A stretch of 64,000 bases of DNA, from assembly GCA_025677605.1 (NCBI GenBank), contig GCA_025677605.1_4110.1; one strand, written 5' to 3'. The notes below the pieces were generated by a model. That model saw nothing but the letters and a program-made list of their open reading frames with translations. It was not told the origin of the DNA and did not search any database. Positions 6,060-50,120 of this stretch are shown here, piece after piece (the first letter of the stretch is position 1; the number at the start of each line of letters is the position of its first letter). Position numbers and translations under genes: made by a program. This DNA comes from a phage.

Positions 6060-6067
6060 TATTTATG
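6060..6067 (-). promoter_or_regulatory. Candidate late promoter (CATAAATA on minus strand) for capsid gene
   Basis: ccATAAATAata about 47 nt upstream of the start codon; part of an element shared with 8799-8890. Confidence 0.4.
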
Positions 6068-6105: not shown

Positions 6106-7224
6106 TTATTTTTTATTGATACCAGAAAGAACGTCGAGTTCTTTTAGGAATGCCATATCGTCAGCGGTCATTTCTTCGCTTTCAACAATAGCCTGACGGT
6201 TGCCAGTGATTACTTTACCTTCTGCTAGGGTTGTTTTCTTCGCTGAAGGTTGAACTGCTTGACGAGTGGTAGCAGATTCATTTACTTTAGTACCGTTAAG
6301 TACAGACTTATGGTACTTGCTGAAATCTTCTTTAAGCTTTTCTGTTGGAGAAGCAGCTAGAAGGGATTCCATAATTTGTTTTTGTTGACTAGTCAAAGGC
6401 TTAACCAATTCAGACATAATTGCATTGCGTGCCTGTGTATCTTCCATGATACGTAGTTTTGATTGAACTTCTTTAACTGCGTTAACAGATTCATTTAGTT
6501 CTTGTTTAACTTGAGCAATCTCATCTTCTTTAGATTTGATTGATTCAGTCAAAGAACGAAGTAGTGAATTCTCATTAAATTGTTTGGTATTAAATTCTTG
6601 AGCAAATGCTTCAAAGATTTTACGACCGAACATATTTTGTTTAGCTTCAGCAAGATCTTGTTTCAAAGCGTAAAGATTTTTCTGAGTGGTTTCTGCAATA
6701 TATTTAGCAGCACTTTCAGAGGTACGTTTGATAAAGTTATTACGTGCTTCTGCAATTTGACGAGAACCTTCAGCAAGTAGTTTTACACGAGCTTCTACTA
6801 GTTGACGTTTTTCGCTGTGGAATTCTTTTAGTTCTTCAGCTAGGATACCGTTAGAGAAATTAACGAATTTACCGAGGCTTTCTTGAACTAGTTTACGTTC
6901 GTTACGCATTTGTTTAACTTCTTCAGCTAGTACTGAATTAGCGAATTCAGAGAAGTTACCAAGAGTTTTACGGAGGGTAACGCGGTCTTCAACGAGACGT
7001 TTTTTCTCGTCATATACTGCACCCATTTCTTCAGCGATAACTTGAGTAACCATAGTGTTAAGACCTTCTGTTAGTTCAGCTAGGTCTTGTTTATAACGGC
7101 CTTTCATTTCTTCACGCATTTCAGCGGCTAGTGTGTTCTTTTCTTCATTCCATGCTTCCTGAATTAGCTGTTTTGCTTCATCAGAAAGAGATGATTCTTT
7201 TAGAAGCTTTTCTAATTTAGACAT
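6106..7224 (-). CDS. Prohead scaffolding protein (gp22-like)
   Basis: 372 aa, strongly alpha-helical / coiled-coil composition (E,K,L,A,Q-rich), located between protease and capsid genes. Confidence 0.6.
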   Translation of the reverse strand: MSKLEKLLKESSLSDEAKQLIQEAWNEEKNTLAAEMREEMKGRYKQDLAELTEGLNTMVTQVIAEEMGAVYDEKKRLVEDRVTLRKTLGNFSEFANSVLAEEVKQMRNERKLVQESLGKFVNFSNGILAEELKEFHSEKRQLVEARVKLLAEGSRQIAEARNNFIKRTSESAAKYIAETTQKNLYALKQDLAEAKQNMFGRKIFEAFAQEFNTKQFNENSLLRSLTESIKSKEDEIAQVKQELNESVNAVKEVQSKLRIMEDTQARNAIMSELVKPLTSQQKQIMESLLAASPTEKLKEDFSKYHKSVLNGTKVNESATTRQAVQPSAKKTTLAEGKVITGNRQAIVESEEMTADDMAFLKELDVLSGINKK

Positions 7225-9191: not shown

Positions 9192-10919
9192 TTAAAAAGA
9201 TTCACCTAAATTATTAGGGTCAAAAGAGCCATTTCCTTGCTGATTTTGGTATTCAGCGTCAGCACTTTCCAGATTACCATCTGCATCTAATCCTAGGTCC
9301 ATACCTGGGTCATTAGGAGAGTCGATACCAACTGACTGTAATCCAGCAACATCTTCTTGTTGTGGTGCATTAGAATCTTGTGGATTCTCTTGTAACCATA
9401 GCTGTTCATTTTTAACAATATCTTTCTGGGAGAAGCCCATTTTTTCAAGGATAGTTTGTTTCGCCATATATGGTAATTCATTAAGTGGCATATATGTATT
9501 AATGAGTTTCGCATCCAATTCTGCTTTACGATAAGAAGCCAAGTTAATTGGTGGATTCATAATAACTTCAAAAGAAGAAGTACTAATGTTATATCCATTT
9601 TTTACCATAAAACGCTTAAATTCAGCATCGAAAATTTTTGCAACTAGACGCTGATAACGCATACATTGGTTATTAAAACGTAATTCACTTGCCATTGCTT
9701 GAGTTGCACCATCACCAAATAGTGATACGCCGCCGTCATCTGGACCTTGTGGAAGGTAAGATGCTGGGATTTGTAAGCCACGAATTAGTTTATTATTAAA
9801 ATATCTCAAGTCATCAATCTGACCTAAGTTATCACCACCAGGTAGTGTTTGAACATCTGAACCACGACCTTCGGAAGTTTGTGGGAAGAAATAGTCTTCC
9901 AATATACTTAGTGGGTTGTATGCTGCATCCATCAATGAAGTACTGCCACCTTTATTAGAAGGTATACGTCTTTGATGGATTTCATTTTTAAAGCGTTCAA
10001 CATATGCCATTGCTTGGTGAGTTTGCATATCACCAACATCAATTTTGAATACACGGCGTTCTGGTGCACGTTGTACACGATAGATAATAATACTATCTTC
10101 AAGAAGTTCTTTTTGTTTGTAGACTTTAAAGACATCTTCTAGTATACTTGTACCGAAAGGCCAAACTCCATCTTGTCCTGTATTTAGTGACAGATGAATT
10201 ACGTGTTCTGCACCAACTGGTATAATATCCATACGACCATTTGTATTAAATGGATCGGAACTATTACCTTGGTTGGTAAAACCAGATGCACCACCTGCGG
10301 CAACTTGACCACCACCACCTAGTGTGTTCGGTATTGCCCCTGGATATGAAGCTTTATCAAAACCAATTTGAAGGTTACTAAAAACTTTATCTTTAAGGTT
10401 AAGAGATACATCTCTTATATAGTATATTACTGGTGTTTTTCCGGTTGCTTCGTTAACAAAAACCTGTTCGACATTTTTTGGGTTAACCCAATACCAGTCG
10501 AATGTTTCTGGGTCACGAATAAAGAACTGGTCACCGTACTTAAGTAGTCCGCGAACAATTTCATACATTCTTGTTTTGAAATCATTCTGTTCAGTCCATG
10601 CATCTAAGCGGTCTTCAATAGTGGTTACTTCCGTATCACCAATATTATCTTTATATTTAATTTTATATGGTAGACCAAAATCTTCAGTACTCTGTGTACA
10701 AAAGTCAGCAATAATGTTTAGTGCCGTTCTGATTTCTGGGTCTTGATCCATCTGGTCGTATTGACTGTAACGGTCAGTACGGTTTGCCAATCCGTTATAA
10801 ACCACCGGAAGGTAGGAAGCAAAATTAGTTTTGCTCCCAGTGGATTTATTACTATTGGATTGCTGGGGTACGATCGATAATTTTGATCTTCCCATAGTCA
10901 TGTGACGTTTCCAACTCAT
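9192..10919 (-). CDS. Portal protein (gp20-like)
   Basis: IYRVQRAPERRVFKIDVGDM matches the gp20 segment [20 protein letters not shown] (from memory); 575 aa; canonical position upstream of core and protease. Confidence 0.8.
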   Translation of the reverse strand: MSWKRHMTMGRSKLSIVPQQSNSNKSTGSKTNFASYLPVVYNGLANRTDRYSQYDQMDQDPEIRTALNIIADFCTQSTEDFGLPYKIKYKDNIGDTEVTTIEDRLDAWTEQNDFKTRMYEIVRGLLKYGDQFFIRDPETFDWYWVNPKNVEQVFVNEATGKTPVIYYIRDVSLNLKDKVFSNLQIGFDKASYPGAIPNTLGGGGQVAAGGASGFTNQGNSSDPFNTNGRMDIIPVGAEHVIHLSLNTGQDGVWPFGTSILEDVFKVYKQKELLEDSIIIYRVQRAPERRVFKIDVGDMQTHQAMAYVERFKNEIHQRRIPSNKGGSTSLMDAAYNPLSILEDYFFPQTSEGRGSDVQTLPGGDNLGQIDDLRYFNNKLIRGLQIPASYLPQGPDDGGVSLFGDGATQAMASELRFNNQCMRYQRLVAKIFDAEFKRFMVKNGYNISTSSFEVIMNPPINLASYRKAELDAKLINTYMPLNELPYMAKQTILEKMGFSQKDIVKNEQLWLQENPQDSNAPQQEDVAGLQSVGIDSPNDPGMDLGLDADGNLESADAEYQNQQGNGSFDPNNLGESF

Positions 10920-10934
10920 TATATTATTAATCCT

Positions 10935-13106
10935 TTAACTATTGCGTTCACCTTGTGTATTTTCAGAAATTGTTCTTAAGTAATTATTTGTCTGATTTGT
11001 TGCTGCGAGTGATTGTTCACTCATTTCTGCTAGACGTTTAAAAATTTCTTTGATCTCTTCTGAACTCATGTCATTATTTATAGTTCCGTTTTGTGGCGTT
11101 ACCAGAGATTTTATATCACGATCTGGTTCTGGTGGGAATGGTGCTTCACCAGGTTTCCATGCGGATTTATCATAATGTTTACGAGTTAATTCCATCATAG
11201 GTGGTGTATTTGGCATTACTGTAGTCTGGACGTTTTTAGGTGGTTCATAGCCCAAGACTCGATATGCATTATCTACGTTAAATGGTCTAGGTGGTGTATA
11301 TAATTTAGAAGATTTCCATTTTTGGAAGTCAAGTGTTTTTTCTTCTACAAATTTTGTGAAATCGTCTACTGAATTACCAATAGAATCCCAGAAAGATGTA
11401 GCTTTCTCTTCTATTTTCTTTTTAGGTTCTTCTTGTTTTTCAGATTTATCATCTGAACCAAACCATCCTTTTACTTTATCCCATAACTTTCCAGGTAAAT
11501 CCATGAGATTCTTCATGAAGTCATCGAATGCTTTTGAAACTTGAGTGTATGTATCACCAAATATATCTGCACCTAATCCTTCAAGCCACAATACAAATTC
11601 ATTACCGACACGATCAACATAAGCAACTGCATCCTTGAATATTGGAACTAACCCAAATCCATCTTTAGCCAATTCCCAAATAAATCCCCATGCACTATCG
11701 GTACGATCTGCAATTGCTGTCAAATAATCAACAACATTATTTTGAACATCAGCATACATTTTATTGAATGGAGCAACAAATTCAGTACTGACCCATCTGT
11801 TCAATCTATCAGTAAATTCTGCGATTTTATCTGCTGGTCGATTTTTGTCAGCATTAATTGCAGCTTCCATATCTAACATTTGCTTAGCAAATGCGGCAGC
11901 GGTGAAGTTTTGACTTCGTTGCATATCTTCCATATCTTTTTCAACGCGTTTTCTGTTTTTCTTCACCCACTGATATTGTGCTTCACGTATAGCTTTTGCA
12001 TCGGTTACACCAGACTTAACCATGTTCTCACCAAGGTCAGCGAATTCGCTAATCATTGGAGATAATAAATCATCAGGAACACCACCAATTGATATTCTGT
12101 GGCTAATCAATCTTAGGAAATCAGTACCCATATCCCCCATACCACCTGCCGCTTCGGTAAGTGCTTTAGTGGTTAATGTTGCGGTTTCTTCTGATAGTCC
12201 CACCCAGTTGTTTAGTGTAGTTTTTAGTATTCTTGCATCAAATGATTTATCAAGTGATTGTGTCTTTTTAAGTAATTCATCAATTGACATACCCATTGTC
12301 TTACTAAAAGTAGACATAGTTTTAATTAACTCTTGGGTACTTTGTGCTTGGTTTATATTCCTTACTAGTTCTGCACCACCAAATTGTTTTTGAATTTTGA
12401 TGTTACGTGCTGCTAAATCTGATAAAGTTTTTTGTGACATACCATATAGGCCAAGTTTATCTTGGGCATTTTGAACTACACCTAACAATTTACCAAATTC
12501 CTTAACGCCATCTCCATACGAACCATCCAATTGTGCAATAACATCACTATGAGTTGATATTACTTCACTGAATAGATCCATAGACATTAACGCTGAACCT
12601 GAACCTTTTAGCAAAGAGCCATAACCTTCAGCAAGAGAAACACCCGCACTGTTGACTCTGTTGTACATTTCAAGCTGGGCGTTCATTACGTTATATACTG
12701 CCATCCCTACATCAGCAACCATTTTAAATGCTGATGCTGCCATTCCTACAGGACCGGGAATCATAGAAAGAGAGCCAGCTACGGATGATGCACTCATACC
12801 CATTGAGTTAATGACAGTACTGACATTCGCTGAAGTACTCATCATTGTTTTACCAACGTTTGTCATTTCGCTGGACATTGCTCTGAACATTTTACCCATA
12901 GAGGATGAATTACCACGAGAACCGCGTCCACCACCACTTGGTCCAGGTGAATCGCCAGGTGATGGGTTACCACCACCATTATTTTTCTTTTTATCATTCT
13001 TTAAACTTTCTGCTAACAATTCACGTATAGCTGAAAGACCATCTACGGTATCATTAGATTTATTCACTATCTGTTGTAGTAAGTAATCACTGTTGTTTAC
13101 AGCCAT
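10935..13106 (-). CDS. Gly/Ser/Met-rich virion protein (tape-measure-like or ejection protein?)
   Basis: 723 aa; N-terminal GGGNPSPGDSPGPSGGGRGSRG then Met/Ala/Ser-rich helical segments; ends 16 nt before the portal start. Confidence 0.35.
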   Translation of the reverse strand: MAVNNSDYLLQQIVNKSNDTVDGLSAIRELLAESLKNDKKKNNGGGNPSPGDSPGPSGGGRGSRGNSSSMGKMFRAMSSEMTNVGKTMMSTSANVSTVINSMGMSASSVAGSLSMIPGPVGMAASAFKMVADVGMAVYNVMNAQLEMYNRVNSAGVSLAEGYGSLLKGSGSALMSMDLFSEVISTHSDVIAQLDGSYGDGVKEFGKLLGVVQNAQDKLGLYGMSQKTLSDLAARNIKIQKQFGGAELVRNINQAQSTQELIKTMSTFSKTMGMSIDELLKKTQSLDKSFDARILKTTLNNWVGLSEETATLTTKALTEAAGGMGDMGTDFLRLISHRISIGGVPDDLLSPMISEFADLGENMVKSGVTDAKAIREAQYQWVKKNRKRVEKDMEDMQRSQNFTAAAFAKQMLDMEAAINADKNRPADKIAEFTDRLNRWVSTEFVAPFNKMYADVQNNVVDYLTAIADRTDSAWGFIWELAKDGFGLVPIFKDAVAYVDRVGNEFVLWLEGLGADIFGDTYTQVSKAFDDFMKNLMDLPGKLWDKVKGWFGSDDKSEKQEEPKKKIEEKATSFWDSIGNSVDDFTKFVEEKTLDFQKWKSSKLYTPPRPFNVDNAYRVLGYEPPKNVQTTVMPNTPPMMELTRKHYDKSAWKPGEAPFPPEPDRDIKSLVTPQNGTINNDMSSEEIKEIFKRLAEMSEQSLAATNQTNNYLRTISENTQGERNS

Positions 13107-13138: not shown

Positions 13139-13146
13139 TATTTATG
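13139..13146 (-). promoter_or_regulatory. Candidate late promoter (CATAAATA on minus strand) for the 723-aa/portal operon
   Basis: ttCATAAATAttcc about 33 nt upstream of the 13106 start. Confidence 0.4.
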
Positions 13147-13159
13147 AAATGCAATGCAT

Positions 13160-13196
13160 AAAAAAAGCCCACATGGATATTAACCATATGGGCTTT
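13160..13196 (-). terminator. Rho-independent terminator after gene 13214..13756
   Basis: AGCCCACATGG/CCATATGGGCT inverted repeat (one mismatch) followed on minus strand by U7. Confidence 0.55.
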
Positions 13197-13213: not shown

Positions 13214-13756
13214 TTAGTATCGTGGTTCCAGTACTGCACTATAGGTTCGTTTTGGTGAACCGTCACTAACATTTTTATTACTGAATATGATAGAGTTTGT
13301 TTCTCTATTAACATACAATGTACCTTCAAGTTTTACTGTCTTTTGAACACCGCCGACAGTATAAGTGAAGTCGTTAATGTTGTAATAAACATCATATCCA
13401 GATGCAGTACTTCCAATATAACTCCATGATTCATATGTCTGACCCATCAGTACTTCATCACCGTTAACAGTGAATTGGATGAATGTCCATTTTAAATGTT
13501 CCTCGTTAGGATCTTCGTTATACAGTTTACCTTTGTAGCTAACAATTTGTGTTGGTAATTCACGTTTAGTTAACTGCTCTTTGTACTCTGATTCTTTAGA
13601 TGTGGATGTTTCGCTTTTCGGAACAATCATACCGATTACTAACATAACAACCATAAAGATACCAAAGGCTTGGAACAAACGTTTGATTGTTGTCTTTATC
13701 ATAAAATATTCCTCTTGGGTGATTTTGAAGTTTTGAACATACATAAATACTTTCAT
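13214..13756 (-). CDS. Membrane-anchored hypothetical protein (start probably Met at ~13702)
   Basis: N-terminal hydrophobic helix LFQAFGIFMVVMLVIGMIVP then a soluble beta-rich domain. Confidence 0.4.
   Translation of the reverse strand: MKVFMYVQNFKITQEEYFMIKTTIKRLFQAFGIFMVVMLVIGMIVPKSETSTSKESEYKEQLTKRELPTQIVSYKGKLYNEDPNEEHLKWTFIQFTVNGDEVLMGQTYESWSYIGSTASGYDVYYNINDFTYTVGGVQKTVKLEGTLYVNRETNSIIFSNKNVSDGSPKRTYSAVLEPRY
13743..13750 (+). promoter_or_regulatory. Candidate late promoter (CATAAATA) for gene 13762..14649
   Basis: About 30 nt upstream of the probable start ATGTCAATG (13780) with GGAG RBS. Confidence 0.35.
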
Positions 13757-13761
13757 AATTA

Positions 13762-14649
13762 TTGCATGGAGAAAGTATTATGTCAATGAACCCGTTAGCA
13801 AAATACACAAAAATCGAAGAAATTAGTACTAAACTCGTCACTAACAACATTTTCCAGTACAAAGATGGTGTATTGGGGAGCAAAGGCATTAAATGTGGTG
13901 TCTGTGCTCGTAGTGCTCGTGACGAAATGATGCTCAATACACCTGATATGTTACTCAATGGTAGTGCAGTGTCATCTGTTATCGAAAACTGTGTACCAAA
14001 CATTCTAAACGCAGATGAGCTTTTTGTCAATGATGTTGAGCAAATTCTTATTGCTATCAAGTTAGCATCCAAAGAAACCAGTTATGATGTCAATGTCGTA
14101 TGTCCATCATGTTCCAAAGAAGGCCGTTTTGAACGTGATCTTTCTTATCTATTGGAAACGGCAGAATCTTTTACTGAAATTCCTAGTATTGATCTTAATA
14201 ATGGTTTGTCTCTTCAGTTCAGACCACTTACTTGGAAAGAATATTCAGAGTTTTCTCAACGTATGTTAGCTGAACAGCAAAAAACTAAGTATCTTGAAAG
14301 TACTATTGATATTTCTGAAGATGATAAAATTAAAATGTTTTCTGAAGTATTTGAAAACATGGCACAACTAAACTTTGATATGATTGCTGGAGTTATTGAT
14401 AAGGTAATTACTCCTGATGGTGATGAAGTATCAGATAAGAAATTCATAAGTGAATGGTTAGGTACTCAATCAAAAGAAGTGATCAAGCAAATCAGAGAGA
14501 AAATGGATGAAGTACTAGAGATTGGTGTATCGCATACAATGGAAGTTGAATGTATTGAATGTCAGCATCAATGGGAACTTACTGGATTAAAGTATGACCC
14601 TACTCATTTTTTCGATCTCAGCTTCTCTTCTCAAACCCAGAAGAAATAA
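13762..14649 (+). CDS. Hypothetical zinc-ribbon protein (probable start 13780, MSMNP); possible C-terminal extension by -1 frameshift
   Basis: Three CxxC pairs (CGVCARS, CPSCSK, CIECQH); slippery T_TTT_TTC near the 3' end (see findings). Confidence 0.45.
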   Translation: MHGESIMSMNPLAKYTKIEEISTKLVTNNIFQYKDGVLGSKGIKCGVCARSARDEMMLNTPDMLLNGSAVSSVIENCVPNILNADELFVNDVEQILIAIKLASKETSYDVNVVCPSCSKEGRFERDLSYLLETAESFTEIPSIDLNNGLSLQFRPLTWKEYSEFSQRMLAEQQKTKYLESTIDISEDDKIKMFSEVFENMAQLNFDMIAGVIDKVITPDGDEVSDKKFISEWLGTQSKEVIKQIREKMDEVLEIGVSHTMEVECIECQHQWELTGLKYDPTHFFDLSFSSQTQKK

Positions 14650-14841
14650 AAGAACTTCTGGATGATATGGAGTTGAATAAATCAGATATTAAAAATGCCC
14701 TTATGGATGCTGCTGTTTATGTAGATAATGTCGATTATGCAACTCTACTTAATATGCCAGTAAATGACAGAGATATGCTTATTAAGGCATACAATAAGAA
14801 AGTAAAGAAGATGAACGAGAAGCACTAATACTCATAAGAAG

Positions 14842-14866
14842 CCAGCACATTGTTGCTGGTTTTTTT
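14842..14866 (+). terminator. Rho-independent terminator
   Basis: CCAGCA-cattgt-TGCTGG hairpin followed by TTTTTTTGTTTTTGTTTTTTGGGTTTTTT. Confidence 0.6.
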
Positions 14867-15123
14867 GTTTTTGTTTTTTGGGTTTTTTACTTACAAAGTA
14901 GATGAAAGAAATTATGATCTTAAAAGATTTATTCTTGAAGGAATTCATTTGATTTATATTGAACTCATCTAACTCATTTCATTCGTTAGCTGAAGAATAT
15001 TCGTTAACTACGTTAACTCATATTCATTTTAATATAATTATAAAGAACTTTAAATGATTTAATACTTGACGGGATTTGTTGAGGATATTTCATCCCCCCG
15101 CAGGGGAATGAAGATAATAAAAA

Positions 15124-15148
15124 AGAGACAATTAAGTCTCTGTTTCTT
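15124..15148 (+). terminator. Hairpin with T-rich tail (terminator-like) inside the ORF-free region
   Basis: AGAGAC-aattaa-GTCTCT then GTTTCTT; an adjacent hairpin TCATCCCCCC-gca-GGGGAATGA lies at ~15090-15112. Confidence 0.3.
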
Positions 15149-15683
15149 GACGCTGATGGCATCGGTATTATTGTATTGCGAATTTCTTAAAATTTAAACG
15201 TAATTATATTGTAAAAATATTAAGAACGAAAGCGGGTTGCTCTGTTTCTCTCTATCGCAGTCATGTGCAACGGTCGTCAGTCTTAAACATCCTGACACTC
15301 ACCTGAAAGTCTATACAATCAAACTTCAGGCTGTTTAATGAAATGAATCATCAAACTCCCTTAGCAAATCTGGTAAGGTGCGATCCTTATACATCTATCG
15401 AGGAACTCTCTGTATGCTTATCGGAGTTCTTTATTGAGCCGTGTCGCCGTGAGGGGTTCATAATATGCCCACATCTAACGGGTTTCTTTTGCTCATCGCA
15501 CTGTTGAACTGCTCATCTACCCTCTACATTTTCGAGTGGATTAGGTTCTAATTTATATGCATTTCTGCATTCAACAGGATTGTCAGTACTACATGAAACA
15601 TTATAGCACGCAATTTAAAAGTGTCTCAAAATATCTAATCTTTTTTATAAAAAAGTACTTAAAAATTTCTTAGGAATGTATTT

Positions 15684-15691
15684 CATAAATA
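15684..15691 (+). promoter_or_regulatory. Candidate late promoter (CATAAATA) for endonuclease VII-like gene
   Basis: About 32 nt upstream of ATG 15724. Confidence 0.4.
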
Positions 15692-15723
15692 TTTCATAAA
15701 CTAACTTAGATCTAAGGCACATT

Positions 15724-18392: not shown

Positions 18393-19442
18393 TTATAATG
18401 ATCTATAGATTTGTATTAGTAGATTCTTGTCGAACATTGGAGAATCAATTTCCATGATTTGTTGTAAAACTATCTCATCAACTGATTCAGTACTTTCAAA
18501 GTGTTCACCTTCTTCCAAAAGTTCTTTGATACTTTGTTTACTTGTAACAACGTTAAACTCACGAATATTATAAAGTTTAGTAAAAGTATCACGAATAAAA
18601 CTAATCTCATCAGTTGTGATTGGAATATCAACCTGAACTTTCGAGATAGAGTTATCTTGTAAGTAATAACTTGGATCAGTTAGTAGCTCTGACAAAGTAA
18701 ATGTTCTGTATTTCGGTGCAGCATCCCATGATTTGAATGTTGGTTCTGAACCGTGTTCAAGAATCATAACACCTCTAGCATCATCCCATGTGTCTGAGAA
18801 GTTATGAGGGAAACAGTTACCAGTATAAATGACACGAGTTCCTTTGGATGTGAGTTTTGATTGTCGTTTATGGAAATGCCCACTAAAAACATACTCACAA
18901 CCACCAAAAGAACCTTCAGTCTCTTTGCCATGATCTGGCATTTCTACCATTTTGTTAAGCAAATATCCAGGTAATTCAAGATGACCAAATACATATTTGC
19001 TTTGTAATTTAGGTAGCATTTTGTATTCATCTTCAATCATAAATGGAATGAAAGTACAATCGTCGATTGTAGTAATTTCATTAATGAACTCGATGTTTTC
19101 ATAAACTTGTGCCATATTAATACTTGTAATATCGCGTTTGTTTTTATGATACATGTCATGGTTCCCAACTAAGAAGTAAACTTTATCAAAGTTGTCATTT
19201 AGTAATTGGAGAATTTGTAAACCATAGTTTAATGTTTGAATATTAATGTTGCTGCGGTTATGGAAGTAATCTCCCATAAACACACATACTTTAATACCTT
19301 TCTTTTTGGCTTCATCAATCATAAATTTAATGAAGTTCAAACAATCTTCGTTGTGCTGCTTACTGTTATTCTTTAATCCTAAATGAATATCAGTGAATGT
19401 AATTGCTTTATCAAATAGTGCCATCGTCATTTTTCCTTTCAA
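18393..19442 (-). CDS. Recombination nuclease subunit (gp47-like, SbcD/Mre11 family)
   Basis: Calcineurin-like phosphoesterase motifs: DIHLG, GDYFH, GNHD, GHxH (FSGHFHKRQ); immediately upstream of the gp46-like gene. Confidence 0.85.
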   Translation of the reverse strand: MKGKMTMALFDKAITFTDIHLGLKNNSKQHNEDCLNFIKFMIDEAKKKGIKVCVFMGDYFHNRSNINIQTLNYGLQILQLLNDNFDKVYFLVGNHDMYHKNKRDITSINMAQVYENIEFINEITTIDDCTFIPFMIEDEYKMLPKLQSKYVFGHLELPGYLLNKMVEMPDHGKETEGSFGGCEYVFSGHFHKRQSKLTSKGTRVIYTGNCFPHNFSDTWDDARGVMILEHGSEPTFKSWDAAPKYRTFTLSELLTDPSYYLQDNSISKVQVDIPITTDEISFIRDTFTKLYNIREFNVVTSKQSIKELLEEGEHFESTESVDEIVLQQIMEIDSPMFDKNLLIQIYRSL

Positions 19443-20295
19443 TCATATTCATTTCGATTTCAATCTGTCTTGTATGTGATGGTGTAAAACCATGCATCTC
19501 AAGAAGGTCGTCGCGAATGTTACGTACATTCTTCTCACTGTTCAAAATAGAACGGAAGCTATTGTTAACGAATGACGTATAGTATGAGAAAGGATTTAGT
19601 TGGACAGCGGGTTTATCTTTCTTATACAAGATACTCTCTTTAAAGAGAAGTGCATTTTTAACTAATTGTATTCTAGCATCACCCATCATTTCATCCAAAT
19701 ACGTATAATTTCTGTAGTTAGATTTGTGAGAGATCTCTTCTGCTAGTTTAATGAACATTTTACCGAGTTCATTTGTGATTTTACCATGTGTTAAGCAGAA
19801 ATCGCCATCTTCCAAGTCGCCTTTCCAATGTGAACGAACAACTTCATACAGAATACCTTCATTATCAACGATATAATGTTTAAATGGTTCAAAATTCACT
19901 CGTGTATCTGGTGGAATGTGCTCATCAGTGATAACTCGAATCACCACTTCATCCAGTGGTACATCATTTACGAATAGACCGTGCTCATCAGCATATTCCT
20001 TTGCTTTCTTAGCACTCATATTCTCTTTTTCGCGAACACTATCAAGCATTTCATTATTCAAACGTTTGATTCGTGCTGCTTTTGCCTTTTCAAGTAATTC
20101 TTCTGTGATTTCAGACTCATGAAACACAATATAATCATACATACCATAACTTTTATCCAAAAGCCAGCAGTATGATATCTTACTTTTATGTATTTCACGT
20201 AATAAGTCTGCGTTATTCAGATACTTCTTACGCTTCGGCTTGTTTATCATTGTAACTCTCCATGTAATGACCAATAGGCACAATCCGTGTGCCAT
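19411..20295 (-). CDS. Late-transcription sigma factor (gp55-like) with internal insertion; probable start Met at 20250 (MINKPK)
   Basis: N-terminus INKPKRKKYLNNADLLREI vs T4 gp55 TKPKYNYVNNKELLQAI; core LGKMFIKLAEEIS...NYTYLDEMMGDA...NPFSYYTSFVNNSF vs T4 IGLAIMLIAEGLS...SGYTQSWKQEMIADG...NPHAYITQACFNAF (from memory). Confidence 0.7.
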   Translation of the reverse strand: MAHGLCLLVITWRVTMINKPKRKKYLNNADLLREIHKSKISYCWLLDKSYGMYDYIVFHESEITEELLEKAKAARIKRLNNEMLDSVREKENMSAKKAKEYADEHGLFVNDVPLDEVVIRVITDEHIPPDTRVNFEPFKHYIVDNEGILYEVVRSHWKGDLEDGDFCLTHGKITNELGKMFIKLAEEISHKSNYRNYTYLDEMMGDARIQLVKNALLFKESILYKKDKPAVQLNPFSYYTSFVNNSFRSILNSEKNVRNIRDDLLEMHGFTPSHTRQIEIEMNMIERKNDDGTI

Positions 20296-21431: not shown

Positions 21432-23582
21432 ATGGATACTAAAATTGGACTAGACCCTAGTCAGAGTAACAAATATGGTGCTAAAGTAAGTAACGTACAA
21501 TCAAAACCAATTCAAAGCACACATACTGATAGAATTTATGACGATAAAAAGATTTCTGATTTTATTATTGACAATGAAAATGTTTTATTAAAATACAATT
21601 CAGCAACGTGGCACTTTACCTTGTTTGCCTTAGATAAAGATGACTTTAAGATGTTCTGGGAAAATCCAGATGCTGAAGTCCAACGTTATGTAATCACTGA
21701 AAGTGGCGTTACTGGTAAGTATAATATCACAAATGTTCAGATGACGCAAGCTGGTCCCTCAACTCCTGGTATGACAACAAACTATACATTTAATACTGCT
21801 TCAATAAGTATGTCAGAAAACAATAGTATGAGTTTTTACGATGAGTTGATATCATTAAGTAATAAACTTCGTTATCATAAATTTATGGATTTACCATTAA
21901 TCCTTGAACTAAAGTTCATTGGTTATAATGAAGATGGTGTTCCTCAAGTCATACCAAACACTACAAAACGTTGGTCAGTGAAGATTAACAACGTTAAAGC
22001 AAGTGCCAGTGCAACTGGTAGTACAATGTTATATACCATTAACTTAGTACACAATCGTGCTGCATTGGTTGATAACGTAGAATGGACATTAAAAGAAACA
22101 TTCTCATGTACTGCTGCACAATTTGGAGCATTTTGTTATGATTTGGAAGATAAGTTAAATGAAATGTCAGAACAACAGTATGGTTATTTGTGTATGAAAT
22201 TTCCAGAACTGGCAGAAGGTAAATTTTTTGAATTTAAAGTTGCACCTGAACTTGCTGATATGTTCATAAACTATGATTCTAAACAAATGACTGAAGTAAC
22301 TTCAACAAAAAATGGTTCACAGGGTTCTAAAAACTTTTCATGGAATCCAAGTACACCAATATCAAGAATAATTGATGATGTTATTGATGCATGTACTGTT
22401 CGTGAAGGTGATAGTACTAGCGTTCGTCAATTTGTTAATATAATCCCACTTAAACAATATGTTGGTTTTGATAATTTACGTAACACATCAGTATATAAAG
22501 TTATTTTTAATATTGTTCGTTTTCGTATTGGTGATGTTGTTCATGAATCCGATTTACAACCAGAAAACTTTAACTTCGAAACGTTCCTAGAAAACTCTGA
22601 ACGTTATCTTGACCCTAGAGATAATGAAGAAAAGTTAAGAATGAAAATATACAATTATCAATTCAGTGGATTGAATAATGAAATATTAGATTTGGATATG
22701 AATTTCGATCAGCAATTTTATGTAGCTACAACACGTAACCCAGGTCCAATACAAGACCAAGGTAACAGAAGTGGTACACATGCATCACAGGAATTAACCA
22801 TACAAGGGGTTCAATATAGTAACCCATTAGATGCGTGGAATAAGACTAGTGATATAAGAAAAGCACGAAGTAAAGGGGAAATTATAACACAAGCTCAAAC
22901 TGCATTACTAAATGAAGTAGATGAGCAATTAAAAAATGCGATGGGTGTGGGTAATCAAGAAGAACAAGATGCTTATATGAATTACAAAGTTCATGTCCTT
23001 CCTGAATACATTGAAGATTATCGTAGTGTATATGAAGAAAATGACATGGGTGCTGATGGAATTGGTGATCGTAGGGGTGAAATATTCACTATACCAACTG
23101 AAGCTACAAACAACCATACAACTTTATCGGCATCTGATAACGATAATAGTAGTACGTATGAAATGGACAGACGTAAAATACGCGACAACTATTATAACCG
23201 TCCATTTATGTGTAAGTTGGATATGCGTGTAATTGGTGACCCATATTGGTTGGGGTGGGGTGATCATGCATATCTTCAATATTTGGATATGTTGGTAAAT
23301 GGTGAAGCATTATATATAAATCCAGAGGATTTCAAATATGCAAATTATATTTCAACTGAAGCATATTTGTTATTGAAATTACAACCAGTTGTTTCTATTA
23401 ATGATAATACTGGTATTTTGGACATAACCACGCCAACCACATTCAACGAAACAATCTATCGCGTAAACAAAATAATTCATGATTTTGGTACAAACGGTAC
23501 TTTCACGCAACAAATTCAAGGTGCTATTGTCGCTCGTGCACTTAAACGTAAAGATAGTATAATAAACCCAGGTGGTGAGTAA
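21432..23582 (+). CDS. Baseplate structural protein (possibly hub-associated)
   Basis: 716-aa ORF, translationally coupled to the gp5-like gene (TAATG overlap); no motif recognised. Confidence 0.4.
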   Translation: MDTKIGLDPSQSNKYGAKVSNVQSKPIQSTHTDRIYDDKKISDFIIDNENVLLKYNSATWHFTLFALDKDDFKMFWENPDAEVQRYVITESGVTGKYNITNVQMTQAGPSTPGMTTNYTFNTASISMSENNSMSFYDELISLSNKLRYHKFMDLPLILELKFIGYNEDGVPQVIPNTTKRWSVKINNVKASASATGSTMLYTINLVHNRAALVDNVEWTLKETFSCTAAQFGAFCYDLEDKLNEMSEQQYGYLCMKFPELAEGKFFEFKVAPELADMFINYDSKQMTEVTSTKNGSQGSKNFSWNPSTPISRIIDDVIDACTVREGDSTSVRQFVNIIPLKQYVGFDNLRNTSVYKVIFNIVRFRIGDVVHESDLQPENFNFETFLENSERYLDPRDNEEKLRMKIYNYQFSGLNNEILDLDMNFDQQFYVATTRNPGPIQDQGNRSGTHASQELTIQGVQYSNPLDAWNKTSDIRKARSKGEIITQAQTALLNEVDEQLKNAMGVGNQEEQDAYMNYKVHVLPEYIEDYRSVYEENDMGADGIGDRRGEIFTIPTEATNNHTTLSASDNDNSSTYEMDRRKIRDNYYNRPFMCKLDMRVIGDPYWLGWGDHAYLQYLDMLVNGEALYINPEDFKYANYISTEAYLLLKLQPVVSINDNTGILDITTPTTFNETIYRVNKIIHDFGTNGTFTQQIQGAIVARALKRKDSIINPGGE

Positions 23583-26245
23583 TGGCAGATACAAGTAAAA
23601 AGTATGCAAAGGAACAGTTGGGTCGTTTTGACCCATCTTATCCACAATTAGCAACCGTTATGGATAACCGTGATCCTACGAAATCTGGTAAGCTAAAAGT
23701 ATGGATACAAGGTTCACAAAGTGATAAAAACTCTAAAGATTCATGGATTGAAGCTTCTTATATGGCTCCGTTTGCTGGCAAAACTCCAGGAATACCGAGT
23801 GCAGATAGTTATGGACAATATCCAAAGGGTTATGGTTTTTGGGCCGTTCCACCAGATGTGGGATGTACTGTTGTTGTTATTTTTGCACAAGCACGTACAT
23901 TCCAAGCTTACTGGATTGGATGTGTTTATGACCAACGTATGAATACAATGGTTCCTGGAATGGCAACTGCGGATACCAATTACAATGGTACTGATATGCC
24001 ATTACCAGTAACTGATTATGATCGTAACACAATCACAACTGACATGCAAGACAAATATATTAACGTTCCTGCTGTTGAAGGATTGAAAAAACAAAACTTA
24101 TTATACGATGATGAAGCAGGTGTTGCAAACCGTAGCAGTACTCGTCAAACAACCAGTACTGTATATGGTATGAGTACACCTCGTGGTAATAGTTTTATTC
24201 TTGATGATGGATATACCGAAGAAGAATTAACCAAACCAACATGGGATCAAGATCCTGATGGATATCAAGACACACAATTTAACAACCCAGTTAATGACAC
24301 GCGTGTTGGTTCCCGTAAGAATGAAGGTATTGTTATTAAAACACGTAGTGGTGCACAACTTCTTATTTCTGAAGCTACTGGTAATGTTTTATTAATTAAC
24401 CGCGACGGTACGGCTCGTATTAAATTCACTGGCGATGGTGATATTGAAATGCACTGTGATAAAAACATAAACATTCGTGCAGGTCAAGATATTAACATGG
24501 TTGCAGGTCGTTCTTATAATATTGAAAGTGGGCAAGACTTCAATACTCGTGTTGGTGGAAATACCAAACTGGAATTGGTCGGTAATTTGGATGCTAAGGT
24601 CAATGGTCAGGTTGTAATTAATTCTGGTGCTGATCTTCGTTTGGTTACTGGTGCTTCATTACGTCTTCAAAGTGGTAGCAGTACTGATATTACGGCTGGG
24701 TCAACTGCATCTATTAAAGGTTCATCCTCTGCAAACGTTATTGGTGGTTCATCCGTTAACATTAGTGGTGGTGGTCAAAACCTAACAGTTGATAGTTCAG
24801 GTAATAGTGGTAGTGCTGCATTCATGGCTCCTGACTTCAAAACTCCATCAGTGGGTCTTAATGACCACATTCATATGATTGCTAACTGGAAAGATGCAGA
24901 AAACCACGGTGATAGGGTTGATCCTGGTATAAGTGGTGGTGGTCAAGGTAGTACGACATCTCCGGTTGAACCACAACCAGCTAACGATGTTAAACCAACA
25001 CTAGCAGAACAACAAGAAACTGAAGCAGTTCAATTTGTAAACTATGCTCCAGAGACGAGTGAAGTTCAAACGCAAGATTTAATGGCGGCTGAGCCTGGAA
25101 TGACTGGTTATTCACAGACGTTTGAAGGTTTGCATATGCTTATGCCATGTAGTGGTACTATACGCCAGAATGGATATTGGGGTAAAGGTGTAACAACCGA
25201 AAATGGAACCAAGCGTGATAGTAGTGGGTGGGAAATTCAAGCCCGTGGTAGTGTGGTTGCACCAGACGGTGGTATTGTTGGTATCAGTGGTGATGCTATT
25301 ATTGTTGAGCATAAATCTGGTTATAAATCGGTTTTCTATGGTTTAACTTCTGACCTATTCAATAAAGATGTTGTTGAAAAAGGGCAAGTGATAGGAACTG
25401 CCAATGGAATACTTCGATTTGAAATAAGAGTTCGATCATCTAATATCTATGGTTTTAGTGGTTCAGTCGATCCTGGGTTATTCTACACAACTGTAACTGG
25501 TCAGGGTTCTGCTGCTGCGAATAAAACATTAATTGGGGGCCAACCATCAACACAAAATAATCCTAAAGATGTGGTCAGACCATCTGCTGATAGTGATGAA
25601 TTGGTAATATCAACTCGCATACGAACTATTGGAACTGGTTATTCACAACGTGGTTCTCGTCATGTTCCTCGTCGTAGAGAACGTAAGCCTCGAAATGCAG
25701 GAACCGCTCCAAAAGTTGAACAAAATTATAATGTAGGTAATGTTGATAAAACTGCCGTTGGATGGAAAGTTGCTCCGGGTGATTCCCAATTTATATCAGA
25801 ACTTAAAGAACACGAAGGTACTATCCAATATCAAACAGCACTTGGATATTTCAGAAATGGAAAATTCTGGCGTTATATTGATAGCCGTGGATTCCCTACA
25901 ATTGGATATGGACACCTTATTGTCGGAGGTGAAGATTTTTCTGGTGGTATAACTGAAGCAGAAGCTGAAGCAATGTTAGTACGAGACAGTACGCAAGCAA
26001 TTAATGATGCCAAATCAATATATGCGGCATGGGATTTAAAAACACCTGTTATTGCTCAACAAGTACTATGTCAAATGGTATTCCAAATGGGCAAATACAA
26101 AGTTCAAAAATTCAAAGGTATGCTTGGATGTTTAGCTAAAGGTGATTATCGTGGTGCTGCTGCTCATATACGTAGTTCAGCTTGGTATCGTCAAACAACT
26201 CGTCGTGCAGAGTTAATGGCACGTAGAATTGAGGCATGTCAATAA
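23582..26245 (+). CDS. Baseplate central spike/hub protein (gp5/VgrG-like) with M23/LytM-like and C-terminal T4-lysozyme-like domains
   Basis: N-terminus DNRDPTKSGKLKVWIQGS resembles gp5 OB-fold start (…DPKLSGRVRVRVVG…); repetitive beta-helix ~24540-24800; M23-like segment ~25170-25470; C-terminal 160 aa (YxDSxGxxTIGYGHL, MVFQMG, SAWYRQT) is T4-lysozyme-like. Confidence 0.75.
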   Translation: MADTSKKYAKEQLGRFDPSYPQLATVMDNRDPTKSGKLKVWIQGSQSDKNSKDSWIEASYMAPFAGKTPGIPSADSYGQYPKGYGFWAVPPDVGCTVVVIFAQARTFQAYWIGCVYDQRMNTMVPGMATADTNYNGTDMPLPVTDYDRNTITTDMQDKYINVPAVEGLKKQNLLYDDEAGVANRSSTRQTTSTVYGMSTPRGNSFILDDGYTEEELTKPTWDQDPDGYQDTQFNNPVNDTRVGSRKNEGIVIKTRSGAQLLISEATGNVLLINRDGTARIKFTGDGDIEMHCDKNINIRAGQDINMVAGRSYNIESGQDFNTRVGGNTKLELVGNLDAKVNGQVVINSGADLRLVTGASLRLQSGSSTDITAGSTASIKGSSSANVIGGSSVNISGGGQNLTVDSSGNSGSAAFMAPDFKTPSVGLNDHIHMIANWKDAENHGDRVDPGISGGGQGSTTSPVEPQPANDVKPTLAEQQETEAVQFVNYAPETSEVQTQDLMAAEPGMTGYSQTFEGLHMLMPCSGTIRQNGYWGKGVTTENGTKRDSSGWEIQARGSVVAPDGGIVGISGDAIIVEHKSGYKSVFYGLTSDLFNKDVVEKGQVIGTANGILRFEIRVRSSNIYGFSGSVDPGLFYTTVTGQGSAAANKTLIGGQPSTQNNPKDVVRPSADSDELVISTRIRTIGTGYSQRGSRHVPRRRERKPRNAGTAPKVEQNYNVGNVDKTAVGWKVAPGDSQFISELKEHEGTIQYQTALGYFRNGKFWRYIDSRGFPTIGYGHLIVGGEDFSGGITEAEAEAMLVRDSTQAINDAKSIYAAWDLKTPVIAQQVLCQMVFQMGKYKVQKFKGMLGCLAKGDYRGAAAHIRSSAWYRQTTRRAELMARRIEACQ

Positions 26246-26279: not shown

Positions 26280-26768
26280 ATGAGTAAATGGGAAATTAAA
26301 CCTGATGATGCACAGTATTTGAAAGAAATTAAAGAGTTTGAAGGTACTATTGCTTTCCAAACTAAATTAGGTTATTTCAAGAATGGTAAATTCAGAGTTT
26401 ATAAAGATAGCCTAGGACTAGATACCATTGGATATGGTCACTTAGTACTAAAAGGTGAAAATTTCAGTGCAGGGCTAACGGAAGCTGAAGCTGAAGCATT
26501 ACTTCAAAAAGATTCCCTAAATGCATACAGAGAAGCAAAAGAGATTTACGATCAATTCGGAATGACTGCACCTATTCAAGTACAACGTGTACTTTGGATG
26601 ATGGTATTCCAAATGGGTAAATCTCGTGTATTGAACTTTAAGAAAGCAATGGCAGCATTGGGACGTGGTGATTATAAAACCGCTGGCAAAGAAATGCGTG
26701 ATTCCGCTTGGTATCGTCAAACAACTTCTCGTGCTGAAAAAATGGCAAGGATTGTTGAATCCGTATAA
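26280..26768 (+). CDS. Endolysin, T4 lysozyme (gene e)-like muramidase
   Basis: YKDSLGLDTIGYGHL, MVFQMGKSRV, DSAWYRQTTSRAEKMA match T4 lysozyme motifs (YKDTEGYYTIGIGHL, MVFQMGETGV, SRWYNQTPNRAKRV); catalytic Glu in EFEG context; 162 aa. Confidence 0.85.
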   Translation: MSKWEIKPDDAQYLKEIKEFEGTIAFQTKLGYFKNGKFRVYKDSLGLDTIGYGHLVLKGENFSAGLTEAEAEALLQKDSLNAYREAKEIYDQFGMTAPIQVQRVLWMMVFQMGKSRVLNFKKAMAALGRGDYKTAGKEMRDSAWYRQTTSRAEKMARIVESV

Positions 26769-27211: not shown

Positions 27212-27219
27212 GATAAATA
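27212..27219 (+). promoter_or_regulatory. Candidate late promoter (GATAAATA) for gp6-like gene
   Basis: ATAAATA core ~58 nt upstream of ATG 27277, followed by TTTCAGTACTG element. Confidence 0.35.
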
Positions 27220-40801: not shown

Positions 40802-40836
40802 AAAAAAGGAGAGCCAATGGCTCTCCTTTTCTTTTT
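40802..40836. terminator. Bidirectional terminator between the convergent giant gene and clpA-like gene
   Basis: AAAAAA-GGAGAGCC-aat-GGCTCTCC-TTTTCTTTTT. Confidence 0.6.
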
Positions 40837-50046: not shown

Positions 50047-50120
50047 ATGGCAGTTTTTTCTAACTTTGAAGGGACAATGAAAACCAAGTTTATACTTGGT
50101 AAAAATGGGGCATTAATTAA
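50047..50120 (+). repeat. Shared 5' module (copy 1) of the two tailspike genes
   Basis: atggcagttttttctaactttgaagggacaatgaaaaccaagtttatacttggtaaaaatgg is ~80% identical to 52236-52300. Confidence 0.6.

Follow-up and report, generated by a model that had tools for sequence, protein, structure and literature searches.

The gene directly upstream of the portal gene in this phage (called X here) probably encodes the tail tape measure of a T4-related jumbo myovirus and would thus be a functional counterpart of gp29 without detectable sequence homology to it. It is a single ATG-to-stop open reading frame of 723 aa at positions 10935..13106 on the minus strand of the analysed window, by which we mean the whole 64,000-nucleotide stretch of DNA. 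The window is 99.5% identical, in reversed orientation, to Escherichia phage A4 (Asteriusvirus), a Rak2-like jumbo myovirus in which X corresponds to A4_4 (99.3% identity), labelled "structural protein". Since Rak2-like jumbo phages are known to carry X in their virions, as judged from its homologues, and X is likely a tape measure, the gene order that seems odd beside T4 is a normal trait of this group of phages.

That X is not a chance ORF follows from the full-length match of PHROG 14121 ("virion structural protein"; E = 1.6e-246, residues 1–723 on profile positions 1–745 of 745), the presence of homologues in 74 phage records, and 265 matches at E ≤ 1e-3 among the protein representatives searched. 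The orthologues RaK2 ORF088, CBB_251, GAP32_244, phAPEC6 gp231c, and 121Q gene 597 are full-length, share 29–57% identity and belong to the same PHROG, while their labels vary between structural protein, hypothetical protein, tape measure, and pore-forming tail tip protein. A search for related loci in IMG/VR returned four Rak2-like loci. Published virion mass spectrometry detected the CBB homologue CBB_251 with 29 peptides and 50% coverage, phAPEC6 gp231c marginally (one peptide), and RaK2 gp088 not at all, i.e., the homologues were undetected or marginal in two of the three virion proteomes. Given the CBB detection, neither a profile match to a non-virion protein nor absence from virions, the two outcomes that would speak against a virion component, was found. 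The RaK2 authors (2013) put ORF088 among the tail genes because of its resemblance to tape measures, and no functional or structural study of this protein was found in the literature searched.

On the minus strand X is followed by the portal gene (T4 gp20 type, 575 aa; 9192..10919; PF07230, E = 4e-114; phrog_213), so the predicted 723-aa ORF directly ahead of the portal is real, and on its other side lies a divergent gp26-type baseplate hub gene (13762..14649, plus strand; PF12322, E = 2.4e-24; phrog_150). The complete layout, consisting of the divergent gp26-like hub gene, X, the portal, an 81-aa protein, an acidic protein, protease, scaffold, and capsid, persists in relatives down to ~14% identity, and from the portal onward it reproduces the T4 order 20-67-68-21-22-23, the 81-aa gene being gp67-sized; the scaffold protein of the window is helical and encoded at 6106–7224. 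The gp26-type/X/portal arrangement was also found in RaK2, CBB, and five metagenomic loci, and X occupies the same place in the Rak2-like orthologues, from which phage A4 differs solely by a membrane-protein gene, specific to A4 and equipped with a promoter and a terminator of its own, that is inserted between gp26 and X. This order is a hallmark of a deep clade. The original comparison with T4, in which terminase, sheath, and tube genes precede the portal, was correct (genes 16, 17, 18, and 19 stand upstream of gene 20), and T4 gene 26 is divergent from the adjoining 51-27-28-29 operon. The tube paralogues of the window are located elsewhere than X, and genes for gp51/27/28 and gp48/54 are not adjacent to it. 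The synteny does differ from T4 upstream of the portal, as originally predicted, but such a layout is standard in a large clade and not peculiar to this genome. As for its interpretation, the idea that the morphogenesis module is rearranged and includes a tape-measure-like protein is supported by the T4-like order from the portal on, the tape-measure-like and gp26-type upstream neighbours and the clade-wide conservation of the order, while the suggestion of a packaged internal protein is less well supported.

As read from the sequence, X has a promoter of its own and belongs to the late genes. A T4-type late-promoter core (cATAAATA; 13139..13145, minus strand) lies 32 nt upstream of its start codon, 19 of the 20 copies of ATAAATA in the window precede a gene start on their own strand by no more than 57 nt (binomial P ~3e-30), and a gp55-type late sigma gene is present at 19411–20295. 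Further upstream, an intrinsic terminator with a 13-bp stem and a T-run (13164..13196, minus strand; terminator scan and sequence reading) parts X from the inserted gene. The spacer between X and the portal measures 15 nt (10920..10934, minus strand) and AAGGA overlaps the X stop codon, which bears out the earlier description of the two genes as translationally close; the terminator scan found no terminator in this spacer, and X and the portal are predicted to form one transcription unit. The sole intragenic copy of ATAAATA in the window (11075..11081, minus strand) falls within the 3' part of the X gene at a distance of 155 nt ahead of the portal ATG; it could serve as an extra late promoter for the portal.

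This proximity to the portal bears on an alternative reading, which we consider unlikely, in which X would be an ejection (pilot) protein present in few copies, residing in the head or associated with the portal. It would be packaged via its N-terminal helices and, after injection alongside the DNA, its hydrophobic segment, like the lysin domains of its relatives, would help the DNA across the envelope. Ejection proteins with lysin fusions are known as well. X stands directly upstream of, and is apparently co-transcribed with, the portal in nearly all relatives, where it opens a head operon, and Atu_ph07 has kept the portal neighbour and lost the gp26 link (gp26 lies ~310 kb away); in Vibrio phage 2.275.O, on the other hand, X is beside and co-oriented with gp26, and the portal is separated from it and divergent. 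As the portal link is broken in one genome and the gp26 link in another, linkage is a draw as a tie-breaker. The N-terminal helix pair (residues 1–41, MAxNxSDYLLQQ...AIRELLAE; 12984..13106, minus strand; alignment A1 and model), with invariant or near-invariant columns in A1 and model helices at residues 3–18 and 23–43, provides the conserved amphipathic helix ahead of a flexible linker that such a protein could use, and it contains L-A-E (residues 31–33), which we take to resemble the T4 gp21 cleavage site. This motif is that of Asteriusvirus, however; several members have L-x-D, with Asp instead of Glu, and the Vibrio and Atu_ph07 homologues lack it; across the family (alignment A1, Vibrio and Atu_ph07 homologues) no conserved N-terminal capsid-targeting or prohead-protease site was found. 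The heads of phAPEC6 and 121Q are published to hold an inner body (91 × 18 nm, which we estimate at ~19 MDa of protein), but with one peptide in phAPEC6 and none in RaK2, X is too scarce to be a major component of it. An ejection role would also leave the phage without any tape-measure candidate. Compared with known internal and ejection proteins (T4 IPs/Alt, T7 gp14-16, P22 gp7/gp20/gp16), X shares the head-module link, the hydrophobic segment and the lysin domains in some relatives, but differs in lacking a conserved targeting or cleavage signal, in its scarcity in virion proteomes, and in having no neighbour of this class by structure or by sequence. Less likely still is the fuller version, in which X would be a head-delivered, portal-linked ejection protein with an unseen 340-residue helical domain, found in a large clade of jumbo phages that are related to T4, are mostly uncultured and measure their tails with another component, and would perhaps be tied to the inner body of 121Q and phAPEC6.

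The composition of X only partly agrees with its description as Gly/Ser/Met-rich. Over its whole length it contains 7.9% Gly, 9.1% Ser, and 5.1% Met, compared with 7.4, 7.5, and 2.3% in the other long ORFs of the window; Met alone is clearly enriched protein-wide (2.2-fold), whereas the combined Gly/Ser/Met-rich character is confined to residues ~43–200, which comprise a GGGNPSPGDSPGPSGGGRGSRG linker followed by a hydrophobic Met/Ala/Ser/Gly-rich stretch. Outside this region, ~520 residues of ordinary helical sequence remain, along with a Pro-rich segment. X has no Cys and 0.4% His, similar to T4 gp29. Both AF2 models are all-alpha, with 24–27 helices, zero strands, and flexible linkers.

After the N-terminal helix pair comes the Gly/Ser/Pro-rich linker (residues 42–68; 12903..12983, minus strand; 50-residue-block composition and model), with pLDDT < 50, no secondary structure, and variable length and sequence in A1. 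It leads into the hydrophobic Met/Ala/Ser/Gly-rich helices (residues 69–129; 12720..12902, minus strand; hydrophobicity and A1), where the Kyte-Doolittle profile of X peaks at 1.26 (residues 109–138) and S101, G103, S105, G121, A126, and F127 are invariant in A1. Together with the domain that follows, these helices form the best-conserved core of the family, remote relatives sharing profile positions ~100–340. That domain (residues 130–470; 11697..12719, minus strand; model) is compact and all-alpha with ~16 short helices, reaches pLDDT 80–94 in the model built with a 62-sequence alignment, and has no structural match in the PDB. Three long helices (483–510, 513–550, and 556–600) make up residues 472–600 (11307..11693, minus strand; model, pLDDT 50–68), which by the model would be the most ruler-like part of X. 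They are followed by the disordered Pro-rich segment (residues 601–680; 11067..11306, minus strand; composition, model, and A1), with pLDDT < 50, a variable and gapped alignment and 14 Pro within residues 601–700, and by a conserved C-terminal helix (residues 682–722, ending in ...QTNNYLRTISENTQGERNS; 10941..11063, minus strand; A1 and model) with invariant L710, R711, I713, N716, and T717 in A1 and pLDDT 83–90.

Several lines of evidence point to a tape measure. A BFVD structure search returned members of the X family as its first 13 matches, and among the top 50 the named non-family matches were tape measure, "minor tail protein", TP901 core, and COG5412 proteins (E = 8e-4 to 4e-2), with the exception of one generic "putative structural protein"; TM-scores were low (0.12–0.2), and long helical proteins tend to attract each other in such searches. 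No ejection or internal protein was among the named neighbours, which argues against an ejection role. With the tape-measure length rule of ~0.15 nm per residue, the 723 aa of X give a predicted span of 108 nm, and X would be long enough to span the tail. The published tail lengths of RaK2 (128 nm, homologue of 720 aa), CBB (123 nm, 722 aa), and Atu_ph07 (136 nm, 845 aa) are consistent with proportionality, in a comparison of three phages with differing measurement protocols. Likewise, phAPEC6 with 25 sheath rings and ~734 aa has 29 aa per ring, close to the 26 aa per ring of T4 (23 rings from 138 gp18 copies, 590 aa). At the C-terminus, syntenic relatives of X have either lysozyme and VanY domains or Gly-zipper segments with matches to tape-measure PHROGs. 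Its virion and late-gene character, its all-helical, Cys-free build, the earlier tape-measure annotations and a tie to the hub, in the form of divergent adjacency to the gp26-type gene in most relatives, count in favour of this role as well. Finally, in the phAPEC6 virion proteome every other protein from 55 kDa upward is assigned or not tape-measure-like, and X is the sole tape-measure-like virion protein of these phages. The other candidates considered for this role were rejected: the 716-aa protein at 21432–23582, phAPEC6 gp158c and gp323c are beta- and aromatic-rich, phAPEC6 gp162c has an HExxH motif, the genes behind the sheath gene are three tube paralogues, and Atu_ph07 gp701, although annotated "tape measure", has a mere 205 aa.

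Homology searches did not tie X to any known tape-measure family. Nothing was found for X in Pfam and NCBIfam (E ≤ 0.01) or among PDB sequences, and ten family members searched at E ≤ 10 against curated tape-measure families (PF10145, PF20155, PF09718, TIGR01760, and others) gave only noise, for instance Tape_meas_lam_C at E = 0.36 and 5; TMP_3 was matched by one of 62 remote members (E = 1.3e-4). The Pfam family of T4 gp29, PF25671, did not match X, although it is carried by all 32 of the 32 gp29 homologues, and when a 189-sequence profile of X was compared with an alignment of 15 gp29 sequences by hhalign, the full-length probability was 13%. The likeness between the C-terminal motifs QTNNYLR (X) and NTNNVIK (gp29) was not significant (hhalign 0.1%). 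Profile searches of PDB sequences were equally unproductive: with a 15-sequence alignment the best match was the central fibre gp20 of mycobacteriophage Douge (E = 0.046, not significant), and with the 62-sequence alignment chemoreceptors, designed bundles, spike HR1, and three tape measures were retrieved, generic coiled-coil matches that are too unspecific to use. Foldseek searches of the PDB with both models of X retrieved nothing beyond designed helical repeats and BAR domains (E > 0.05). The tape-measure PHROG matches of long relatives (P0082 and P0103) are located in their C-terminal lysin/Gly-zipper parts, outside the shared core, and so reflect domain fusion, not core homology. The sole outside matches in tblastn with RaK2 ORF088, a Microbacterium phage tape measure (E = 0.02) and Salicola SCTP-2 (E = 0.1), were both marginal.

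The lack of homology to gp29 is one of the points that would also suit a different tail protein, namely a structural or assembly component of the tail or baseplate hub that works with gp26 and does not set tail length. X might then plug the hub or act as a scaffold during its assembly, with another protein as the ruler or the length set otherwise; among the readings weighed here this is the least probable. The conserved adjacency to the gp26-type hub gene fits it, as does the confidently predicted compact helical domain of ~340 residues, which is unlike a simple coiled-coil ruler. The same domain speaks against a tape measure, since folded in this way it would not fit the ~4 nm lumen of the tube, and so does the position of X, which is not between tube/chaperone and hub genes and is apparently co-transcribed with the portal. 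A conserved helical core region is, however, common in true tape measures. The overall length of X, its long helices, and its structural neighbours (with one BFVD match labelled TP901 core) point to tape measures, and the virion proteins offer no other ruler.

T4 gp29, a baseplate hub subunit and the tail length determinator, is likewise a late, helix-rich virion protein devoid of Cys, with 590 aa (vs. 723 aa in X) and a similar number of residues per sheath ring. Its gene has the divergent gene 26 in the neighbourhood, and in both proteins the N-terminal part is helical and there are a linker rich in Pro/Gly and a hydrophobic segment. It differs in having no sequence or profile similarity to X and in its gene position, between gp28 and gp48 in the hub operon and far from gene 20. 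The tape measures of siphophages and other myophages (TP901-1/PF10145, lambda gpH, T5 pb2) are also long and all-helical with Gly/Ala-rich hydrophobic segments, and T5 pb2 as well as many tape measures of Gram-positive phages have muralytic domains, which are C-terminal in the relatives of X. Unlike them, X lacks a curated-family match and preceding tube and chaperone genes, and its compact 340-residue helical domain has no PDB counterpart.

As a tape measure, X would be synthesized late from its own T4-type promoter, and a few copies (three or six) may enter the baseplate hub together with the gp26-type protein, the gp27-type protein encoded at 21432–23582, and the gp5-type protein encoded at 23582–26245. 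Its helical chain would then run upward inside the growing tail tube and fix the length of the tube, one of the conserved terminal helices being anchored to the hub and the other to the tube-terminating proteins. Upon sheath contraction X would be expelled ahead of the DNA, and the Met/Ala/Gly-rich hydrophobic helices could insert into the envelope, while distant relatives could use their fused lysozyme and VanY domains to cut peptidoglycan. The adjacency to the portal would result from the lineage-wide shuffling of T4 modules and not from a function in the head.

The gene and its position are already recorded in GenBank for phage A4 and ~70 relatives, and the tape-measure resemblance was proposed for RaK2 in 2013. 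What is added here is the order as a clade hallmark, the late promoter of the gene itself, its standing as the only tape-measure-like virion protein, and the lack of detectable homology to gp29. The finding is an ordinary one, with little importance past annotation, yet a firm assignment would harmonise the divergent record labels and offer a handle on tail-length engineering in therapeutic jumbo phages.

Separately, an ORF-free element at ~15035–15640 of the window is present in multiple copies, covaries strongly, and appears to be a new structured RNA of large size.

The gene of interest is a single ATG-to-stop ORF at 10935-13106 (-) encoding 723 aa, and its position directly upstream of the portal is real: only 15 nt separate its stop codon, overlapped by an AAGGA motif, from the start of a T4-type portal gene at 9192-10919 (-; PF07230, E 4e-114). 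Over the surrounding 5.7 kb, the sequence shares 99.5% identity with Escherichia phage A4 (ON286972.1; genus Asteriusvirus), a jumbo myovirus of the Rak2-like group with a 355.5-kb genome; the window is reversed relative to the A4 record, in which the gene (A4_4) is annotated as 'structural protein'. The Gly/Ser/Met-rich composition in the original prediction was overstated, as Met was enriched 2.2-fold (5.1% vs. a background of 2.3%) while Gly (7.9 vs. 7.4%) and Ser (9.1 vs. 7.5%) were close to background over the whole protein, the Gly/Ser/Met-rich character being restricted to residues 43-200. Among E. coli assemblies, a 358,987-bp contig also encodes an identical protein, so that a whole jumbo-phage genome sits within a bacterial assembly. 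Another ORF, at 50047-52218 (+), likewise encodes exactly 723 aa but is unrelated (phrog_6117, E 3e-229; a protein of the tail-spike or colanic-acid-degrading type), and the shared length is coincidental.

T4 late promoters have the heptamer ATAAATA as their core. The window contained 20 copies vs. 32 expected by chance, 19 of them located 6-57 nt upstream of a gene start on the same strand (binomial P ~3e-30; e.g., 6060-6066 (-) and 27213-27219 (+)), with the motif depleted elsewhere; this set provides a ready-made late-promoter map of the phage. One copy (13139-13145 (-)) lies 32 nt upstream of A4_4, a strong intrinsic terminator (13164-13196 (-)) ends the preceding gene just before it, and the window also encodes a late sigma factor of the gp55 type, which together indicate that A4_4 is a late gene co-transcribed with the portal. 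The sole intragenic copy, at 11075-11081 (-) in the 3' end of A4_4 and 155 nt upstream of the portal start codon, may act as an internal late promoter that boosts the portal relative to A4_4.

A4_4 aligned along its whole length with PHROG 14121, a 'virion structural protein' family (E 1.6e-246), and homologues were found in 74 phage records, Rak2-like jumbo phages throughout, with identities of 57% in 121Q/PBECO4, 36% in RaK2, and ~31% in phages of Yersinia, Serratia, Erwinia, Cronobacter, and Pectobacterium. A profile search with the family against 1.8 billion representatives retrieved 265 matches at E ≤ 1e-3, sharing a core at positions ~100-340. In this phage group the feature is commonplace and has been described before: the RaK2 genome record labels ORF088 'similar to Enterococcus phage phiFL4A gp48 tail tape measure protein', the RaK2 paper grouped it with the tail genes on the basis of very low similarity and did not detect the protein by MS, and later GenBank labels for the gene read tape measure, putative tape measure, or pore-forming tail tip protein. 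The literature searched contained no structural or genetic work on the protein.

Downstream of the portal come, in turn, genes for an 81-aa protein, an acidic virion protein of 284 aa, a prohead protease (S77), a scaffold-type protein of 372 aa, and the major capsid protein. This order is colinear with T4 20-67-68-21-22-23; the 81-aa protein resembles gp67 in size and position only. On the upstream side, an A4-specific membrane-protein gene separates A4_4 from a baseplate hub gene of the gp26 type (PF12322, E 2.4e-24) that is divergently oriented. T4 genes 13-19 are absent from the locus, and the sheath and three tube paralogues are encoded elsewhere in the genome. Five remote relatives (~14-19% identity, 748-1411 aa) keep the order of divergent gp26-type gene, A4_4 homologue, portal, ~81-aa gene, ~300-aa gene, protease, scaffold, and capsid, so the layout is standard for the clade, though unusual compared with T4. 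The order is broken in Vibrio phage 2.275.O, where the homologue is co-oriented with gp26 and apart from the portal, and in the opposite way in Atu_ph07, where it sits beside the portal and gp26 is ~310 kb away; gene linkage by itself cannot assign the protein to head or tail. In two remote relatives from metagenomes (L007, 13775-15928, and the P0139 locus), an intein interrupts the portal gene (Portal_T4 - Intein_splicing - Portal_T4).

An AF2 model from 15 sequences was all-helical and poor (pLDDT 48), while one from 62 sequences (pLDDT 68, pTM 0.55) predicted, from the N-terminus, two helices, a disordered Gly/Ser/Pro linker (residues 42-68), hydrophobic helices of low confidence (69-129), a compact helical domain (130-470) modelled with confidence (pLDDT 80-94), three long helices (472-600), a disordered Pro-rich segment (601-680), and a C-terminal helix (682-722), again confident. 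Conservation is strong at both termini. Foldseek searches of the models against the PDB found no match. In BFVD, a viral structure library, the matches were led by the family's own members, including the Atu_ph07 and Vibrio homologues, and the named non-family matches in the top 50 were tape measure protein, minor tail protein, TP901 core region or COG5412, except for a generic 'putative structural protein' of Agrobacterium phage 7-7-1 (E-values 8e-4 to 4e-2, with low TM-scores and a ranking open to helical bias).

On balance, we consider A4_4 to be probably the tail tape measure. Its helical architecture and BFVD neighbours point in this direction, as do its length (723 aa would span ~108 nm as a helix vs. 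published tails of 123-136 nm), the number of residues per sheath ring (29 in phAPEC6 vs. 26 in T4), and the fusion of some relatives to lysozyme, VanY or Gly-zipper segments. The recovery of homologues in virion proteomes was low or variable, as expected for few copies per particle, which makes a role as a major inner-body component unlikely. No other tape-measure candidate was found among the phAPEC6 virion proteins of at least 55 kDa, the remaining ones being assigned, beta-rich or equipped with an HExxH motif. Against a tape measure count the lack of detected homology to T4 gp29 (the tail length determinator) or its Pfam family, the lack of matches to curated tape-measure families, and the compact domain, which would be too big for the tube lumen if folded as predicted. 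It also counts against a tape measure that the gene lies next to the portal and belongs to the same transcription unit; this linkage, like the N-terminal helix-plus-linker, agrees with a low-copy ejection protein, a reading that we regard as rather doubtful given that the protein has no conserved cleavage or targeting motif and no structural neighbours of that class, and that the phage would then be left with no ruler. A hub or assembly protein devoid of ruler function is a less likely alternative. The original prediction was half right, in that a rearranged module with a tape-measure-like protein is retained; a packaged internal protein is less well supported.

Atu_ph07 gp701, annotated as 'tail length tape measure protein', was rejected as a candidate: it has 205 aa, a size that makes the label implausible, and adjoins a lysozyme. 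It is the positional equivalent of the 162-aa lysozyme gene of the window (26280-26768 (+)), which reproduces as a stand-alone gene the lysozyme domain found at the C-terminus of the adjacent gp5-type spike protein (23582-26245 (+)) and matches phrog_13211 at positions 727-885. A 3335-aa ORF (30793-40800 (+)) directly follows the gp6-type wedge gene, its phAPEC6 homologue being the 382-kDa virion protein gp245, and a ClpB-like double AAA+ ATPase gene (40835-43120 (-)) lies within the baseplate and tail region.

The gene inserted between gp26 and A4_4 (13214-13756 (-)) encodes a protein of 162-180 aa for which a single transmembrane helix is predicted. It had no PHROG or Pfam match, and among 50,697 phage records only that of A4 itself contained it. 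The gene is preceded by the region's best sigma-70-type promoter (13758-13786 (-); TTGACA-17-AATAAT with TG, 11/12 matches) and, with its own terminator, has a moron-like architecture.

Between the gp26 operon and an endonuclease VII gene lies a ~0.9-kb stretch (14829-15723, core ~15035-15640, + strand), unannotated in the A4 record and with no ORF > 54 aa, tRNA or Rfam match. Its DNA is 66-89% identical across Rak2-like genera, the proteins of which have diverged to ~30% identity, and the element occurs in 3-5 copies per genome. The consensus fold of six copies reached -81 kcal/mol vs. -10.6 ± 3.7 for column shuffles, with compensatory changes at 35 pairs vs. 4.7 in shuffles and 94% of cells paired, and G-U counts favoured the + strand. 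The element appears to be a large structured RNA not described before and is a candidate for a new family of ~550-600 nt. A search of IMG/VR located its invariant 23-mer on seven Rak2-like jumbo contigs and on one contig of 33.6 kb.
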